Shown here: piece after piece, positions 11,988-36,856 of the stretch
How the letters are laid out: each line of letters begins with the position of its first letter
Position numbering within the stretch: the first letter of the stretch is position 1
From: Promethearchaeota archaeon
GTDB taxonomy: Archaea > Asgardarchaeota > Lokiarchaeia > Sigyniarchaeales > SOKP01
Reading direction: 5' to 3'
NCBI GenBank assembly: GCA_048939995.1
Contig: JBHLOY010000004.1
Span: 1-64,000, forward strand
DNA: 64,000 nt
Made by a program: the position numbers and the translations under genes
Notes under the pieces: model-generated
Database searches by the model: none
What the model was told of the DNA's origin: nothing
The model's input: only the letters and a program-made list of their open reading frames with translations

Positions 11988-13340
11988 TTATAACCGAGTT
12001 ATATATCTATCTCTTTCCCATTCACTTACGATTACACGATATTTGTCATATTCCTCAAGCTTGGCATAATAGTAGTTTTTAAACGCAAGTTCACCAAATA
12101 CCTCTTTCATGAATTCCGATTCTTTAAATTCATCTAAAGCTCGTCGTAAACTGCCCGGTAATGCAACAATTCCTTCTTTTTCCATTTCTTTAGATGTTAA
12201 ATGATACACATTTCTATCAGTTGGTTCATACAGTTCAATATCATCTGCAAGAATTCCATCCAATCCTGCTGAAAGTAATACGGCAAATTGAAGGTAAGGA
12301 TTGCCTGCTGGATCAGGACATCTAATTTCACATCGCGCTGCGTTTGGCCTCCCATGAAAATCTGGAACTCTAATTAAAGGAGATCTATTTCTAAAACCCC
12401 ATGCTAAATATACTGGGGCCTCATAGCCAGGAACTAACCTTTTATATGAGTTAGGCCAACTACTTAAAACTGCACACATAGAAATTGCATGTTTTAATTG
12501 ACCTGCAATCCATTTTTTCATTATTGGAGATATATTATCCCTATCCTCCTCATCATAAAACGCATTAGTTCCATTCTGCCAAAGGGATTGATGGACATGC
12601 ATTCCAGATCCGTTAATTCCTTCAAAGGGTTTTGGCATAAAAGTTCCTATTAAATTTTGTTGAGCTGAAACCGTTTTAACTATTGACTTAATCGTAATTG
12701 TATTATCTGCGGAATTCACAGCTTCATCATACCTAAAATCTATCTCGTGTTGCCCAAATGCAACCTCATGATGCACACACTCAACAGAGATACCCATTGC
12801 ATCACAATATTCCGCGATTCTATATCTTATCATTTCGCTAATATCATACGGATCATAATCAAAATAGCCTCTCATATCGGAAGGCTTAACTGCTTGTTCA
12901 GTATCTGGAGTTAAAATGAAAAATTCCATTTCTGGAGCACAATAATATGTATAACCTAACTCTTTTGCCTTATTAACTGCCCTTTGTAGAATCCCTCGAG
13001 GATCGCCTTCATAACGATTTCCATCCGGCTTATAAATATCACAGATTACCCGTGCAACTTTATTCTGTTTCCTCCATGGTAAGAGATGAAATGTACTGGG
13101 ATCTGGAAGAGCAACCTTATCACTCTCCTCAATTGCTCCATAACCTGTTACTGAGCTTCCATCAAAACTTTCGCCAACATCGAAAATATCTTCAATACGC
13201 TTGGAATTTATTTCAAACGACTTAATAATCCCATGAATATCAGTAAATTGAAGATAAATAAATTTAATATCCTCTTCCTTTATTTTCTCTATAACATTAT
13301 CACATAACTCCTTTCGCTTTGGATCATCCTTCTTAATCAT
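11988..13340 (-). CDS. glnA: Glutamine synthetase type I
   Basis: FDGSS, HHEVAFGQHEI, FMPKP, NGSGMHVHQS, KRLVPGYEAP, EIRCPD. Confidence 0.96.
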   Translation of the reverse strand: MIKKDDPKRKELCDNVIEKIKEEDIKFIYLQFTDIHGIIKSFEINSKRIEDIFDVGESFDGSSVTGYGAIEESDKVALPDPSTFHLLPWRKQNKVARVICDIYKPDGNRYEGDPRGILQRAVNKAKELGYTYYCAPEMEFFILTPDTEQAVKPSDMRGYFDYDPYDISEMIRYRIAEYCDAMGISVECVHHEVAFGQHEIDFRYDEAVNSADNTITIKSIVKTVSAQQNLIGTFMPKPFEGINGSGMHVHQSLWQNGTNAFYDEEDRDNISPIMKKWIAGQLKHAISMCAVLSSWPNSYKRLVPGYEAPVYLAWGFRNRSPLIRVPDFHGRPNAARCEIRCPDPAGNPYLQFAVLLSAGLDGILADDIELYEPTDRNVYHLTSKEMEKEGIVALPGSLRRALDEFKESEFMKEVFGELAFKNYYYAKLEEYDKYRVIVSEWERDRYITRL

Positions 13341-13376
13341 ATACTTTCAACTTTTTTTTCTTATTCGATAAATAAT

Positions 13377-13784
13377 TTACTCATATATTAGCAAAGAATC
13401 ACTTTTTTTCGAGACAAAATCAACAATTTCATCTACTAATTTTGGATTGATTACTAGATGTGATTCTTCAAGTGATTTTTCTATGGTAGCACGAAATCTC
13501 TCAATAGTCTCACAATTCCACCCATAATTCCTCGCTGATGCGATCCTCAAGCTAGAAGGCTCAGTTGTTATCTCCATATATTTCTTAGGTAATCGTTTAC
13601 TCGCAAATACATAATTATCATTACTTAAAAAGACTGCACAGTTCCATTTATAAAATTCACTGCTCCTGAATTTAACTCCTTCCATGGAATTCGATAAACC
13701 ACTATACTTTAAGTAATCCTCACACTCTAAGCATATCTTACTCTCGTAGGAATACTTTCTACCACAGATTGGACATTTTAACAT
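13377..13784 (-). CDS. Hypothetical Zn-ribbon protein with two WNC motifs and a C-terminal IYE; paralog of 31704..32015
   Basis: KCPxCGxxYSYxxxICxxCE, YKWNC and YGWNC are shared with the paralog. Confidence 0.8.
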   Translation of the reverse strand: MLKCPICGRKYSYESKICLECEDYLKYSGLSNSMEGVKFRSSEFYKWNCAVFLSNDNYVFASKRLPKKYMEITTEPSSLRIASARNYGWNCETIERFRATIEKSLEESHLVINPKLVDEIVDFVSKKSDSLLIYE

Positions 13785-13831: not shown

Positions 13832-13850
13832 TATGGATATAAAATCCATA
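13832..13850. promoter_or_regulatory. Palindrome TATGGAT-N5-ATCCATA upstream of the Zn-ribbon gene and glnA
   Basis: Perfect 7-bp arms, just upstream of a minus-strand TTTAAATATA TATA-like box. Confidence 0.5.
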
Positions 13851-14049: not shown

Positions 14050-14349
14050 ATGCATTTTATGTGCGATTATAAGATTGATAATGAGGGTAATATAATAGAA
14101 CTTCATATGCATCAGGCTGAATTAATATTTATGGCAATTTTTCCTGAACAATTATGTCTTCTTAAGAGTTTAGAAGTTATTAGATTTCCTAATAATGTCA
14201 TAGAATTTATTCCTGAGTGTATTATGAATCTGAAATTTTTAAGAGTTTTGGATGTAAGTAATTTCGAAGGTCCAACTGCTTTGATTCCTGATTCAATTAG
14301 ATCTTTTATAGAGTCATTAGAGAGTTATAATGAATTTTATGGACATTAA
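14050..14349 (+). CDS. Short leucine-rich-repeat protein, possibly N-terminally truncated
   Basis: FPEQLCLLKSLEVIRFPNNVIEFIPECIMNLKFLRVLDVSN fits LRR periodicity. The frame is open back to 13990, with a TAA at 13987. Confidence 0.7.
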   Translation: MHFMCDYKIDNEGNIIELHMHQAELIFMAIFPEQLCLLKSLEVIRFPNNVIEFIPECIMNLKFLRVLDVSNFEGPTALIPDSIRSFIESLESYNEFYGH

Positions 14350-31331: not shown

Positions 31332-31351
31332 AGTGGGAAGCAAGTCCCACT
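31332..31351 (+). promoter_or_regulatory. GC-rich hairpin or inverted repeat in the leader of the wHTH gene
   Basis: AGTGGGA-AGCAAG-TCCCACT, lying between a TTAAATA TATA-like box and the GGTGA RBS. Confidence 0.55.
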
Positions 31352-31388: not shown

Positions 31389-31643
31389 ATGGCATTAGAA
31401 AAAATAAAATCAAGTATGGATAGTATTATAAAACCCAAGAAAGCCGTTTATAGGACATATGAATTAATGTGTCTCGAGAAACTTAAGGAATTAGGAAAAT
31501 CAACAGCAGCACAATGGTCTGCTGCGATGGGATATGAACATAGAAGCTCACTTGCTAAAGTTATAAAAAGGATCAAAATGAAATATCCTGATAAGCTAAA
31601 GATTTATTATGACAGGACACCTCGGCAATATGAAGCTTTATAA
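31389..31643 (+). CDS. Small basic winged-helix DNA-binding protein
   Basis: LKELGKSTAAQWSAAMGY..RSSLAKVI HTH-like pattern with a PRQY wing; GGTGA RBS. Confidence 0.75.
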   Translation: MALEKIKSSMDSIIKPKKAVYRTYELMCLEKLKELGKSTAAQWSAAMGYEHRSSLAKVIKRIKMKYPDKLKIYYDRTPRQYEAL

Positions 31644-31703: not shown

Positions 31704-32015
31704 ATGATGATTAAATGCCCATCGTGTGGAATTGAATATTCTTATGGTAGGAATATATGTCATACGTGTGAAAAGTACTGTATATTCTTTGGTTCAATCT
31801 TCAATTTAGGACGAACAGAGCGTGATTGGAATTGTAATACAAAGAAGACTTTAGCAAGTTTAGACAACTTTCCGCATAAATCAAAAATTGTCAGAGAATT
31901 GGATGATTATGAATTAATTTTAGAAAAAACAAAGCCTTACCAGTGGAATTGCGATCCAGCATTGAAAATTTCAATTCAGGATAAAGGCATGAGCTATTAT
32001 CATCTATATGAATGA
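31704..32015 (+). CDS. Hypothetical Zn-ribbon protein with two WNC motifs and a C-terminal LYE; paralog of 13377..13784
   Basis: KCPSCGIEYSY...ICHTCE, DWNC, YQWNC, HLYE. Confidence 0.8.
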   Translation: MMIKCPSCGIEYSYGRNICHTCEKYCIFFGSIFNLGRTERDWNCNTKKTLASLDNFPHKSKIVRELDDYELILEKTKPYQWNCDPALKISIQDKGMSYYHLYE

Positions 32016-32052: not shown

Positions 32053-33849
32053 TTAGATTAATTTTTCTAATTGGTTTACAAATTCTTCATATTGCTTAAT
32101 ACCAAGCTCCCAAAATTCTGCTTTTGTGATATCTAGCCCAACAATTTTTCCTAAATCTACAGAGGACAAGCTACCACCTGCACTTAATAACTTTTTAAAC
32201 TTCGGAATAAAGGCTTTTCCTTCTGCTTTATATTTTTGATAGAGCGCATACACAAATAGTTGAGCGTAGACATACGGATAATTATAAAACCTGAGTCCTA
32301 TTCTAAAATAGTGTGGTTTCATTGTCCATTCCCAAATAAGTTCATCGAAAAAATCAACAGCCTCTCCATATATCATATCTCGCCCGGCAACCCAGTGTTT
32401 AGCTATAGTTTGGCCATCTAAATATTCATTTTTTTTGATTGCATCATATAGATTTTGTTCGAACCAATATCTTGCGCTTACTTGAAAGACTGCCATGCCT
32501 GCCTCATCAAGTACGTTTGCCAAAATCGTTCGCTTAATGACATCCGATTCAGATTTTTCTAATAATAAATCTGTTAATAATAATTCACCAAAAATGGATG
32601 CACACTCAGCAACAGTATATCCCGGATGAATATTGAAATAAGTTTGAGCTTTCATAGCTAGATAATCATGAATTGCATGGCCTAACTCATGAGCTAATGT
32701 GAAAATTTCCCTTAATTGACCAGTATAGTTCATAAGAATAAATGCGGATTTCCCATTAAACCATGAAGTACAATATGCTCCGTTTCTCTTTCCATCTCGA
32801 GTACTAGCATCAATATGGTTCATGTTAAACATATCCCTAACATAACCAGCAAACTCTTCATCAAACTTATTATAAGCTTCAATTACTAGATTTTTAGTTT
32901 CTTGCCAGCTATATTTCTTTTCTGGTGCTTCTAGTAATGGTGCTAAAACATCAGCATAGTTTAGTTTTGGTAATTTAAGGAGTTTAGCCTTTAATTTCAT
33001 ATATCTTCTATATACATTTGCGTTCTTTTCAATAGTTTTCATTAAATTTTCTATTATTTCTTGGGATGTGTCGTTTGTAATAAGGCTATCGTGTAAAGCA
33101 TTATCGTACTTTCTTCTATTAACGATTTTCATCCAATCTCCACATATATTTCTCAAAGCTGTTGAAAATATATATTCATCCTTCCCTAGCTTGCTATAGA
33201 TTGATCTCTGAGCAGATATTCTCGTATCTCGGTCTGGATGGCTTAATAAACTATTTGCATCATTATATGATAATATTTTGGCTTCTCCCATTACCTTTAC
33301 TTTAAATTTTCTCGTATTCAACCATTTAGCTTGCAATTGACTCCATTGAATAATACCAAATTGATCCTTTTCTAAAATTAATTGTTCTTCTATTTCTGAT
33401 AATTGATGTGGTTGCTTTCTCCTAATTTTCTCCAAATAGTGTTTATAATTCTTTAATAGGTCATCATCAATTAAATCTTCATTCTGAAATACATATTTTC
33501 CTATATCTAGTTCAAGAAAAGCTAGTTTTTGAGCAAGTTCAGTACTGAATTGAACGACTTTATTTTTTAAAATTTCGGACTCTGGGATTTTCATGTTTGC
33601 ATCATATAAAATATATGAATATGTAGCTAATTCATCTAAATTTGCTTCAAACTCTTCTTGTCTTTTAAATAACGTTAGTAAATCTTTATTTGTAAATTCT
33701 GGTTTCTTTATTTTCCCTCTATAGTTTTGAACAAAACCCTCAGCTTCCTTATTTAGATTTTTTATAACGCTACCTATTTTGGTGTCATTATGACTTCTAA
33801 ATAAGCCCGTTAAATCCCATGCGATTTCTTCATTTGTCATATAAATCAA
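32053..33849 (-). CDS. pepF: Oligoendopeptidase F (M3B)
   Basis: WDL N-terminus, GKRNGAY, HELGH, AECAS, FYNYPY. Confidence 0.93.
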   Translation of the reverse strand: MIYMTNEEIAWDLTGLFRSHNDTKIGSVIKNLNKEAEGFVQNYRGKIKKPEFTNKDLLTLFKRQEEFEANLDELATYSYILYDANMKIPESEILKNKVVQFSTELAQKLAFLELDIGKYVFQNEDLIDDDLLKNYKHYLEKIRRKQPHQLSEIEEQLILEKDQFGIIQWSQLQAKWLNTRKFKVKVMGEAKILSYNDANSLLSHPDRDTRISAQRSIYSKLGKDEYIFSTALRNICGDWMKIVNRRKYDNALHDSLITNDTSQEIIENLMKTIEKNANVYRRYMKLKAKLLKLPKLNYADVLAPLLEAPEKKYSWQETKNLVIEAYNKFDEEFAGYVRDMFNMNHIDASTRDGKRNGAYCTSWFNGKSAFILMNYTGQLREIFTLAHELGHAIHDYLAMKAQTYFNIHPGYTVAECASIFGELLLTDLLLEKSESDVIKRTILANVLDEAGMAVFQVSARYWFEQNLYDAIKKNEYLDGQTIAKHWVAGRDMIYGEAVDFFDELIWEWTMKPHYFRIGLRFYNYPYVYAQLFVYALYQKYKAEGKAFIPKFKKLLSAGGSLSSVDLGKIVGLDITKAEFWELGIKQYEEFVNQLEKLI

Positions 33850-33910: not shown

Positions 33911-35485
33911 TTATTCATATTCAATTGTACTTGGGGGTTTGTTTGAAATATCATAAACAACCCTGTTAAAGCCTTTAACTTCATTGATAATTCGTGTGCC
34001 TATTTTTTCTAATAAATTCCAATCTAATTTCGCAAAGTTTGCGGTCATTGCATCAATAGATTCTACAGCTCTTATAGAACATATGTATTCATATGTTCGA
34101 TAATCCCCCATAATGCCAACTGTTTTAATTGGCAGTAATACACAAAAAACCTGCCAGAGTTTTTCATAGAGCGATGCTTTTTCGATTTCCTCCAATAGAA
34201 TCGCATCAGCTTCCTTTAACATTTCTAACTTTTCTTTATCTATCGGTCCAAGGCATCTAACTGCGAGTCCAGGTCCAGGAAATGGATGTCTATAGATCAA
34301 TTCTTTTGGTAATCCTAGTTCTAATCCAATTTTCCTAACCTCGTCCTTATATAAGTCCTTTAATGGTTCGATCAATTCTAATTTCATATTTTTAGGTAAT
34401 GTGACATTATGATGTGATTTAATTTTAGCAGCCGATTTACTAGTAGCAGCAGTCTCAACTCGATCGGGATAAATTGTCCCTTGAGCAAGATATTTTATAT
34501 TTGGAAAGTGCTTTTCTAATTCTAATGTTTTCTTTTCAAATACTTCTATAAATTTATGCCCTATAATTTGACGTTTTTCTTCAGGATCTTCAACATCCTT
34601 TAAATTTTCTAAAAAAATCTCTTCAGCATTTACAAAATGAAAATTTTTGAATTGTAATTGTCCTTGAAAAAGCTCTTGAACTTCTATTTCTTCATTTTTA
34701 CGTAAAAGACCATTATTTACAAAAATACAATGAAGTCTATCACCTATTGCTCTATGAATTAATGCAGCAGTAACAGACGAATCGACTCCTCCACTAAGCC
34801 CTAAAATTACCCTATATTCTTTACCTGCTTTTTTTTGAATATTTTTTATAGTTTTTGTTATCCAATCGCTTAATTCCCATTCTTTATTACATTCAGCGAC
34901 TCTAAATAAAAAATTTTCTAAAATTAATTGTCCATTAAGAGTGTGTTTCACTTCTGGATGAAATTGAAGTCCAAAAATCTTTTTTTCGTGGTTCGCATAA
35001 GCTGCGATGGGGCATGTATCTGTTTTAGCCAACACTTTAAAATTAACTGGTAACTTTATTACTTGATCTCCATGAGACATCCACACAATTTGGACATTTT
35101 TATCCAACTCACTAAAGATAAGATCATTTTCTAGAATTTCTAAGTTAGTTTTACCGTATTCTTTTTTTTCTTTAGCAATTATAGTTCCTCCTGAATTCAA
35201 TGCTATAAGATGAAATCCATAACATATACCTAATAATGGAATTTTTTTTCTTAGGATATATTGAAATACATCCTTTGAAAGCTGAGGGCTTCCTTTTTCA
35301 TAAACAGATTGAGGACCTCCAGATAAAATAATCGCATTAGGATTTATCTTTTTTATACTTTCTACATTAATATAAAAAGGATAGATCTCAGAATATACCC
35401 CCAATTCTCTTATCCTCCTAGCAATTAAATGGGTGTATTGACTTCCAAAATCTAATACGATTATCATTTTTGTAAATTCACACAA
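33911..35485 (-). CDS. guaA: GMP synthase (fused glutaminase and ATPPase domains)
   Basis: DFGSQY, GICYG, QFHPEV, SGGVDS, HPFPGPGL, KPPSTIE. Confidence 0.97.
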   Translation of the reverse strand: MCEFTKMIIVLDFGSQYTHLIARRIRELGVYSEIYPFYINVESIKKINPNAIILSGGPQSVYEKGSPQLSKDVFQYILRKKIPLLGICYGFHLIALNSGGTIIAKEKKEYGKTNLEILENDLIFSELDKNVQIVWMSHGDQVIKLPVNFKVLAKTDTCPIAAYANHEKKIFGLQFHPEVKHTLNGQLILENFLFRVAECNKEWELSDWITKTIKNIQKKAGKEYRVILGLSGGVDSSVTAALIHRAIGDRLHCIFVNNGLLRKNEEIEVQELFQGQLQFKNFHFVNAEEIFLENLKDVEDPEEKRQIIGHKFIEVFEKKTLELEKHFPNIKYLAQGTIYPDRVETAATSKSAAKIKSHHNVTLPKNMKLELIEPLKDLYKDEVRKIGLELGLPKELIYRHPFPGPGLAVRCLGPIDKEKLEMLKEADAILLEEIEKASLYEKLWQVFCVLLPIKTVGIMGDYRTYEYICSIRAVESIDAMTANFAKLDWNLLEKIGTRIINEVKGFNRVVYDISNKPPSTIEYE

Positions 35486-35596: not shown

Positions 35597-36856
35597 TCAA
35601 ATCCATCCTCGTAATTTCATGGCTTCGATAACCCTATCGATTGAAATCATATAGGCTCCCATTCGATTATGGGTGTTATATTGCTTAGCATGCTCTACAG
35701 TCGCTCTATAAGCATTTGTCATTATTCTATCTAAAGCAGCGAATACTTCTTTTTCGGTCCAAAAATACATATAATAACCTTGTACCATTTCGAAATATGA
35801 AACAGTTACCCCACCAGCATTACATAAAAAGTCAGGAATTAATAGTACGCCATTATTAAATAGAATTCTATCAGCATCGGGTGTGGTAGGGCCATTTGCT
35901 AATTCAGCTAAGATTTTAGCTTTAACATTCTTCGCATTCTTCTCAGTAATTTCGTTTTCAAGAGCTGCTGGAACTAAAATATCACATTCCAATTCAAGGA
36001 GTTCTTCATTAGTAATTTTTTTTGTTCCTTCTAGACCGACAACAGTTCTCGTCTTTTCTTTATGATTTGCAGCCATATAAGGATCGATCCCATTTTCATT
36101 ATATATTCCACCTTTGGAATCGGATACAGAAATGATTTTGCATCCAAAATCATCGTGTAGAATTTTAGCCGCCCAAGAACCTGCATTTCCATATCCCTGT
36201 ATAGCTACGCTTGCTCCATTTAACTCCAATCCAATGTCTTTAGCTGCTTCTCTAATAGTAAATACTCCTCCTTTAGCCGTTGCTATTGACCTTCCAGCAC
36301 TCCCCCCTAATGGTAAAGGTTTCCCTGTGATTACAGAAGGTGAATGTTTACGTATTATCTTTTCATACTCATCCATCATCCATGCCATAATTTGAGGATT
36401 TGTATAAACATCTGGAGCAGGTACATCAATATTAGGTCCAATAAAGTCTGCCAATTGCCTGATGTAGCTCCTAGCTAGAACTTCTAATTCCCTATTGCTC
36501 ATTCCTTTCGGATCACAAATGATGCCACCCTTAGCTCCACCAAGTGGAATATCTACACATGCTGTTTTCCACGTCATCCACGCGCTAAGAGCCTTAACCA
36601 AGGATGCACTCTCTTCAGGGTGCCATCGTATCCCTCCTTTCATTGGACCTCTTGCGGAATTATACTGACTTCGGAATCCCTTAAATGTTTTTATAGTCCC
36701 ATCGTCCATCTTAATGGTAATTTTTACTTGAACAAACCTTTCGGGTTCACTTAAAGTCTGATAGATATCGTTGCCAATCTCCTTTAATTCACATGCTTCC
36801 CTTAATTGCTTTTGAGATATAAGAAACGGGTCGAGTGTCTCACTCATTAATCTCAC
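35597..36856 (-). CDS. gdhA: Glutamate dehydrogenase
   Basis: KGGIRW, GGAKGG, VPAPDV, QGYGNAG, ANGPTT, NAGGV. Confidence 0.95.

Follow-up and report, generated by a model that had tools for sequence, protein, structure and literature searches.

A zinc-ribbon protein family with a conserved C-terminal tetrapeptide, encoded at glutamine synthetase and related loci of Asgard archaea, as a candidate set of nitrogen regulators

The stretch of DNA analyzed here, referred to below as the window, comprises the first 64,000 nucleotides (nt) of contig JBHLOY010000004.1 of a Promethearchaeota archaeon (assembly GCA_048939995.1). It contains two small genes of one protein family, which is distinguished by an N-terminal zinc ribbon, two WNC motifs, and a C-terminal L-x-Y-E tail. 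The first open reading frame (ORF), ORF A (13377-13784, minus strand), encodes the 135-amino-acid (aa) member that is linked to glnA, the gene for glutamine synthetase (GS). The second, ORF B (31704-32015, plus strand), encodes a 103-aa paralog of another type (B-type), ending in H-L-Y-E. Comparison of these genes and their neighborhoods across related genomes suggests that ORF A and ORF B are lineage-specific zinc-ribbon regulators of the glutamate/glutamine node, namely, of GS, glutamate synthase (GOGAT), and glutamate dehydrogenase (GDH), a reading judged somewhat probable.

Both proteins begin with the pattern (M)xKCPxCGxxYSYxxxICxxCExY, which in ORF A corresponds to a CPxCG...CxxC zinc ribbon (residues 1-24; 13713-13784, minus strand). 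The ribbon cysteines C4, C7, C18, and C21 are invariant in an alignment of 26 sequences, and C18 falls below invariance in an alignment of 82; depending on the alignment, the invariant columns of the family are therefore three or four of these cysteines together with the terminal Glu. The WNC motifs read YKWNC and YGWNC in ORF A, and RDWNC and YQWNC in ORF B. In the first of them (residues 47-49 of ORF A; 13638-13646, minus strand), W47 and N48 are kept in at least 90% of family members and C49 is nearly invariant; in the second (residues 89-91; 13512-13520, minus strand), W89 and N90 are kept in at least 90% of members and the Cys is variable, being replaced in orthologs to give WNT, WNS, or WNY. 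A first-pass annotation, made from the letters of the window alone, had described two divergent paralogs sharing the ribbon motif and a pair of WNC motifs. The two ORFs match each other with a pairwise BLASTP E-value of 8e-10 and the family hidden Markov model (HMM) scores ORF B at 1.5e-25, so that, by these comparisons, they are true paralogs with similarity beyond chance. The WNC pair is likewise present in both; what did not stand is the Cys of the second motif as a conserved residue.

The two proteins end in ...SDSLLIYE (ORF A) and ...YYHLYE (ORF B), the tail L-I-Y-E of ORF A occupying residues 132-135 (13380-13391, minus strand), with the stop codon directly after it. Every ORF A ortholog at 53-81% identity is 135 aa long, and these orthologs end in SDSLL[IV]YE, the exceptions being two single substitutions just before L-I-Y-E. 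Compared with orthologs of 77% and 57% identity, ORF A has dN/dS ratios of 0.22 and 0.14, respectively. These values and the constant length of the orthologs identify it as a genuine gene under purifying selection.

Downstream of ORF A lies glnA (11988-13340, minus strand; 450 aa), with matches to Pfam Gln-synt_N and Gln-synt_C (E = 1e-120). The spacer between the ORF A stop and the glnA start (13341-13376, minus strand) is 36 nt long and no terminator-like hairpin was found in it; from this arrangement, co-transcription of the two genes is plausible. The coordinates and the Pfam match thus agree with the earlier claim of a same-strand glnA 36 nt away, and the synteny check that had been proposed with it gave a clear result: in 27 of the 29 best orthologous loci of other species, the next gene downstream is a same-strand glnA. 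This linkage persists down to ~31% protein identity and despite rearranged flanks. In most orthologous loci the spacer measures ~25-99 nt, and in two there is an apparent 8-nt overlap, for which the start call of glnA is uncertain. The closest solved structures to the linked GS are 8ufj_A and 8s59/8tfb (E about 1e-133), which we take to be Methanosarcina mazei GS, followed by 7tfa and 4lnf, presumably Gram-positive GS. These matches place the linked GS among ordinary type I-alpha enzymes, closest to characterized housekeeping GS.

A stand-alone Lrp/AsnC gene is divergently oriented to the ORF A orthologs in 19 of the 29 loci, and in sister genera that lack the family the same Lrp gene lies directly against glnA, an arrangement that suggests insertion of the family into a control region of Lrp and glnA. 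At the corresponding place in the window, where genus g12 has its Lrp/AsnC gene, there is a 99-aa ORF with weak leucine-rich-repeat similarity (14050-14349), which may be a gene fragment. The host genome (G000, 98% complete) also carries a second GS-family gene (C23:156465-157751, equivalent to L040:1216-2502), which encodes a divergent 428-aa protein, has no zinc-ribbon partner, and may be a glutamate-amine ligase of another specificity. This second gene directly follows a gene for a thiamine-diphosphate-enzyme-like protein.

The linkage of an ORF A-type protein to GS is one aspect of a wider family. An exhaustive phmmer search returned 28 cluster representatives with identities down to ~31%, and nearly all full-length representatives end in L-x-[YF]-E, while the 20-40 residues before the tail fail to align family-wide. 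The contrast first drawn between ORF A and ORF B, that their linkers do not align and yet their tails are alike, therefore extends to the family as a whole. Tail statistics were derived from 113 unique sequences, with positions counted back from the last residue (-1 being the penultimate). A [YF]E ending occurs in 94 of these 113, and in 94 of the 97 stand-alone full-length members; the 19 sequences lacking it are 10 Lrp fusions (described below), 5 fragments on short contigs, 1 false positive, and 3 genuine tail-less members. Among the 94 tailed members, the last residue is always Glu, position -1 is Tyr (88%) or Phe (12%), position -2 is I, V, L, M, or F in 90% and K, T, S, R, or Y in the remainder, and position -3 is Leu in 87%. 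As a background, 24 of 3,493 long ORFs in the host genome end in [YF]E, 4 of the 24 being family members. Separately, a 987-aa protein encoded in the host genome (C11:360222-363185, minus strand), convergent with a 20S proteasome alpha-subunit gene, ends in ...LIYVYE, probably by coincidence.

The family HMM matches 94 of 400 genomes of the phylum. The GTDB family of the window holds 87 of these 94 genomes (87 of its 134 genomes), chiefly in two genera (32/41 and 44/54); the matches outside it are few and marginal, with E-values near 1e-4. Organisms carrying the family are named Promethearchaeota or Promethearchaeia, i.e., the Loki-type Asgard lineage. The family is narrow and almost confined to one GTDB family rather than Asgard-wide. 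A Pfam scan of 82 members found no curated family above threshold: the best zinc-ribbon match of ORF A scores 19.5 bits against a gathering cut-off of 23.4, DZR_2 matches below threshold occur in 48 of the 82 members, and other generic ribbons (Zn_ribbon_3 and others) are also sub-threshold. Pfam scans found no helix-turn-helix (HTH) domain in stand-alone members, the HTH being confined to the Lrp fusion and to a separate 84-aa partner protein. Profile searches of the PDB gave no relative for the family or for this partner, the ESM Atlas gave nothing but generic zinc ribbons at chance-level scores, a search for fused forms of at least 259 aa gave none, and no published literature on the family was found. 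As a protein family it is new, having no curated family, structure, or literature that could be found.

Two AlphaFold2 runs on ORF A, with the 26- and 82-sequence alignments, gave predicted local distance difference test (pLDDT) scores of 67 and 63, respectively. The ribbon is the only part modeled confidently (pLDDT 72-89), two C-terminal helices of ORF A having some confidence, and residues 31-90, which bear the WNC motifs, come out disordered, as does the tail. That conserved WNC motifs and a conserved tail lie in regions modeled as disordered fits motifs that fold on a partner.

The first partner proposed for the tail was the proteasome. In the HbYX motif, a hydrophobic residue, Tyr, and almost any final residue make up the C-terminus that docks into the alpha-ring pockets of the 20S proteasome (PMC11142061, PMC10349882), and the family could on this basis comprise ATP-independent proteasome regulators, or adaptors delivering GS and GOGAT for nitrogen-controlled proteolysis. 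The formal match is good: the aromatic residue at -1 (all tailed members) and the hydrophobic residue at -2 (90%) are kept at the exact C-terminus, as had been anticipated from the two ORFs, and the tail is modeled as flexible. The host possesses two 20S alpha subunits, two PAN, and three Cdc48-like ATPases with Hb-[YF]-X tails, and small HbYX proteins such as archaeal PbaB activate 20S (PMC3605417). Beyond this formal match, nothing was gained for proteasome docking, and the conservation of Glu and Leu, the neighboring genes, and the narrow distribution speak against it. HbYX docking requires neither the invariant terminal Glu nor the Leu seen at -3 in 87% of members (PMC11142061), none of the host's own PAN and Cdc48-like tails (LYS, LFS, LFV, FYK, and LYR) ends in Glu, and 10% of members have K, R, S, T, or Y at position -2. 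The conserved neighbors include no gene of proteasome, AAA, ubiquitin-like, or chaperone type, and the family is restricted to one GTDB family, whereas proteasomes are universal in archaea. Moreover, a small and probably monomeric protein with one tail would dock weakly, and 20S alone cannot degrade a folded dodecameric GS. Docking on the proteasome is accordingly considered very unlikely.

The conserved neighbors point to nitrogen metabolism instead: across the family they comprise GS, parts of GOGAT, Lrp/AsnC, an HTH-like gene, PepF, GuaA, and GDH. Subfamilies other than the glnA-linked one were found from 40 additional loci, whose neighbors were clustered and annotated. The B-type relatives of ORF B in other species (n = 20) are 97-120 aa long, and 18 of the 20 end in [YF]E, mostly as L-[IVL]-Y-E. 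They lie directly upstream of a gene for a 548-aa Glu_synthase-like protein, with pepF and guaA beyond it. In the window, ORF B is followed by pepF (32053-33849, minus strand), named from the Pfam M3 domain of its orthologs, guaA (33911-35485, minus strand), named from the Pfam GMP-synthase domain of its orthologs, and gdh (35597-36856, minus strand), which matches NCBIfam GdhA_Arch (E = 5e-173); pepF and guaA also recur beside B-type members in other species. A third subfamily, a tandem two-module form of 165-174 aa with the tail LIYE or LKFE, is encoded directly upstream of an operon for an HdrB/C-like iron-sulfur protein, a class-II glutamine amidotransferase (GATase_2), and a Glu_synthase protein (PF01645, E = 4e-127), which by its gene content looks like an archaeal split GOGAT. 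No true GOGAT was found in the host genome, which matches its lack of the tandem subfamily.

In a further, 197-aa form, the ribbon and first WNC motif (residues 1-47) are fused to a complete Lrp/AsnC protein, with HTH_24 (E = 1.5e-16) and the AsnC ligand (RAM) domain, and the C-terminal tail is missing. The loci of this fusion (L071-L080; for example, L072:4038-4631) lie beside genes for a CheY-like response regulator and a histidine kinase, i.e., a two-component system, and gdh. The host genome itself contains further short paralogs of 70-74 aa (C6:72583-72795, C17:128056-128280, and C26:74897-75121, all on the minus strand), of which the 70-aa C6 copy was missed by the HMM and picked up through a scan for ORFs ending in [YF]E. 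Degenerate ribbons are seen in two of the three, whose C-termini read SLIYE and TLYE; the remaining copy, terminating in NSY, is similar to the N-terminus of the Lrp fusion and is located upstream of a PepQ-like peptidase gene that adjoins a gene read as gdh from its N-terminal sequence only. The C17 paralog is located upstream of carbamate kinase.

The neighborhoods could also be inherited synteny around generic small zinc-finger proteins that lack any specific link to nitrogen and in which the tail serves stability or self-association. The carriers belong to one GTDB family and mostly to two genera, which makes the loci non-independent, the structure models are of low quality, and no homolog has a known function, all of which would suit such proteins. 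It leaves unaccounted for, however, that four sequence-distinct subfamilies each lie by a different enzyme of the same pathway while the flanks past the partner gene differ between genera, that the tail is kept across ~30% identity and the linker is not, and that the Lrp fusion independently connects the family with amino-acid regulation. This explanation is regarded as unlikely.

A possible DNA-binding partner is encoded beside ORF B. Immediately upstream of it, and forming a conserved gene pair with it, is an 84-aa HTH-like gene (31389-31643, plus strand). The same small gene (~70-89 aa, or 101 aa in one ORF call) precedes B-type and tandem members in other species; weak, sub-threshold matches to HTH_18 (AraC-type HTH) occur in 7 of 15 of its members, and the 84-aa protein, which has neither a Pfam family nor a PDB relative, ends in PRxYEA[LV]. 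About 40 nt upstream of this gene lies the palindrome GTGGGA-N6-TCCCAC (31333-31350), whose arms recur with the fixed N6 spacing and a variable center in 16 of 17 orthologous loci of other species as well as in the window. Fixed spacing with a variable center suggests a putative protein operator rather than an RNA hairpin. Two more intergenic copies are present in the host genome (C13:97577 and C15:6247). A looser GGGA...TCCC pattern gave 72 listed matches in a scan of the host genome, most of them inside ORFs; with mostly intragenic chance matches and few intergenic copies, GGGA...TCCC palindromes were rejected as the definition of a regulon.

At the glnA locus, a different palindrome, ATGGAT-N5-ATCCAT (13833-13849), is positioned 49 nt upstream of the ORF A start, and related GGGA...TCCC palindromes with GGG-N6..8-CCC spacing are found upstream of many A-type orthologs. 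Since these vary in spacing, they are not claimed to be the same operator as the fixed-spacing palindrome at the HTH-like gene. The A-type palindromes sit downstream of a conserved TATA-like element and a subsequent GATCAT motif.

To our knowledge, nothing is known of the regulation of nitrogen assimilation in Asgard archaea. The two classical archaeal nitrogen-control devices are PII/GlnK and NrpR, and neither a PII protein (PF00543) nor an NrpR domain (PF01995) was found in the host genome, with controls detecting both in model archaea. PII is present in 0 of 41 genomes of the host genus and in 6 of 54 of the other family-rich genus, as compared with 3 of 4, 5 of 7, and 4 of 6 genomes of sister genera in which the zinc-ribbon family is absent or marginal, a hint, from a few related genera, at complementary distributions. 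Where PII occurs in the family-rich genus, it is encoded in the same glnA locus, which marks this locus as the nitrogen control island of the lineage.

Taken together, these observations argue for a role of the family in nitrogen control, for the following reasons: glnA follows the A-type gene in nearly all orthologous loci (27/29); the other subfamilies map to GOGAT, GOGAT-like, and gdh loci; a Rosetta-stone fusion joins the ribbon and first WNC motif to Lrp/AsnC; Lrp/AsnC is divergently encoded at A-type loci (19/29), and an HTH-like gene with a palindrome accompanies the B-type and tandem loci; the host lacks PII and NrpR; and the linked GS is of the I-alpha type, the type bound by the TnrA and GlnR tails in Bacillus. 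The link to nitrogen that the first-pass annotation had drawn from glnA alone is thus borne out by the GS, GOGAT, and GDH context, separately from the speculative proteolytic role to which it had been tied.

In the proposed mechanism, each paralog would be encoded directly upstream of the gene or operon that it serves, glnA in the case of ORF A, and the family would act in Asgard archaea that mostly lack PII. The N-terminal Zn-ribbon/WNC module would work with a DNA-binding partner, either the adjacent Lrp/AsnC protein or the 84-aa HTH-like protein, the module being covalently fused to Lrp in one subfamily. The flexible L-hydrophobic-Y/F-E-COOH tail would serve all tailed paralogs as a docking peptide, binding a single shared receptor that signals nitrogen status. 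By analogy with the tails of Bacillus TnrA and GlnR, the most likely receptor may be type I-alpha GS itself, the ligand pocket of the Lrp RAM domain being a less likely candidate. Both the regulatory function and the choice of receptor are inferred from gene context among related genomes.

Several points weigh against this assignment. Its support amounts to guilt by association among related, non-independent genomes. The stand-alone protein has no recognizable DNA-binding domain, the host genome has no Lrp gene beside ORF A or ORF B, the Glu_synthase-like neighbor of B-type members is missing from the host genome, and several host paralogs (such as the C6 copy) lie beside genes that are not obviously related to nitrogen. 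In addition, the tails of TnrA and GlnR are helical when bound to GS and need no terminal Glu (PMC4335299), so that the Bacillus analogy leaves the invariant Glu unexplained and keeps alive an alternative in which that residue itself is functional.

According to this alternative, the invariant terminal Glu would be a tethered glutamate that enters an enzyme active site, acting either as a pseudo-substrate or product plug that directly inhibits GS or GOGAT or as the true substrate of a carboxylate-amine ligase, as in the pairs Pup-PafA and LysW-LysX. There are precedents for functional C-terminal Glu residues: LysW is a small Zn-ribbon carrier whose C-terminal Glu is the functional group in the AmCP pathway, and PafA, which has a GS-like fold, activates the C-terminal Glu of Pup. 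The Glu is conserved in every tail while adjoining positions tolerate change, and glutamate is a ligand of each adjacent enzyme (GS, GOGAT, and the GOGAT-like protein). On the other hand, a shuttle carrier is expected to be one protein serving successive enzymes, whereas the family supplies a separate paralog for each enzyme; the Pfam scan of the 82 members returned no LysW ribbon; ORF A, with an isoelectric point (pI) of 7.5, is not strongly acidic; no ATP-grasp or LysX-like gene was found among the neighbors; the linked GS is an ordinary I-alpha enzyme; and some paralogs adjoin genes for carbamate kinase or peptidases, enzymes without this kind of Glu binding. A tethered glutamate is considered quite unlikely, and a LysW-type amino-group carrier in particular is judged unlikely from the ribbon model, the pI, the neighbors, and the one-paralog-per-enzyme pattern. 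Equally doubtful is the proposal that in Asgard archaea that have lost PII the zinc-ribbon family took over nitrogen sensing, with its Tyr-Glu-COOH terminus entering the glutamate sites of both GS and GOGAT as a substrate or pseudo-substrate.

The favored assignment as regulators of the glutamate/glutamine node would describe a compact candidate nitrogen-control system: a new family with a four-residue C-terminal signature and paralogs at GS, GOGAT, and GDH loci, together with a natural Lrp/AsnC fusion and an HTH-like partner gene with a conserved palindrome. Docking of the tail on GS would mean that archaea had independently reinvented the Bacillus logic, in which GS is the sensor. Entry into an active site would represent a new way of controlling a central enzyme; at the GS or GOGAT site, the tail would be a protein-borne ligand that reads out or throttles the GS-GOGAT cycle. 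A tethered glutamate, if real, would be mechanistically akin to Pup-PafA or LysW-LysX, with the difference of being regulatory, and docking on 20S would link nitrogen status to proteolysis. Should the terminal Glu turn out to be the functional group, a new mechanism would be a realistic prospect.

As a kind of system, small regulators that are encoded at glnA and whose paralogs have a docking tail in common are already known. In Bacillus, feedback-inhibited type I-alpha GS is bound by a C-terminal tail found in both of the paralogs TnrA and GlnR, the gene immediately upstream of glnA is glnR, and GOGAT belongs to the regulon (PMC4335299). The Asgard family resembles this system in having a small putative regulator gene directly upstream of a type I-alpha glnA, in paralogs with a common flexible C-terminal tail that together would cover GS and GOGAT, and in a core switch that would need no PII. 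The Bacillus proteins are, in contrast, of the MerR type with a winged HTH, whereas the Asgard proteins are zinc ribbons that lack an HTH; the Bacillus tails are helical on GS and have no invariant terminal Glu, and there is no sequence similarity between the two.

Small proteins that act on type I GS in a nitrogen-responsive manner are further represented by sP26 and GlnK1 of M. mazei (PMC10651883) and by cyanobacterial IF7 and IF17, an interaction with GS being a candidate one for the Asgard family. These proteins differ from it in sequence and fold, are not zinc ribbons, and have no conserved C-terminal tetrapeptide. The HbYX activators (PAN, Cdc48, PbaB, Blm10/PA200, and PI31) likewise carry a hydrophobic residue, Tyr or Phe, and one final residue on a flexible tail (PMC11142061, PMC10349882, PMC3605417); unlike them, the Asgard family always has a final Glu, almost always Leu at -3, and sometimes a polar or basic residue at -2, has no genomic link to proteasome genes, and occurs in a host whose activator tails end in S, V, K, or R.

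The LysW and ArgW carriers share with the family a small zinc ribbon, a flexible C-terminal extension with a conserved final Glu, and a location amid genes of amino-acid metabolism (PMC12998189). The Asgard family, by contrast, has no match to the LysW ribbon, is not acidic, has no LysX/ArgX-type ATP-grasp ligase nearby, and provides each enzyme with its own paralog in place of one shared carrier. The C-termini differ as well, that of LysW being EDWGE as opposed to L-x-Y-E. Finally, archaea possess small CPxCG zinc-finger proteins, including haloarchaeal micro-proteins and Brz, some of which are transcription co-regulators. The Asgard family has in common with these a CPxCG...CxxC ribbon in a protein of ~60-140 aa; the likeness seen is that of the generic ribbon, and the WNC motifs and the L-x-Y-E tail belong to the Asgard family only.

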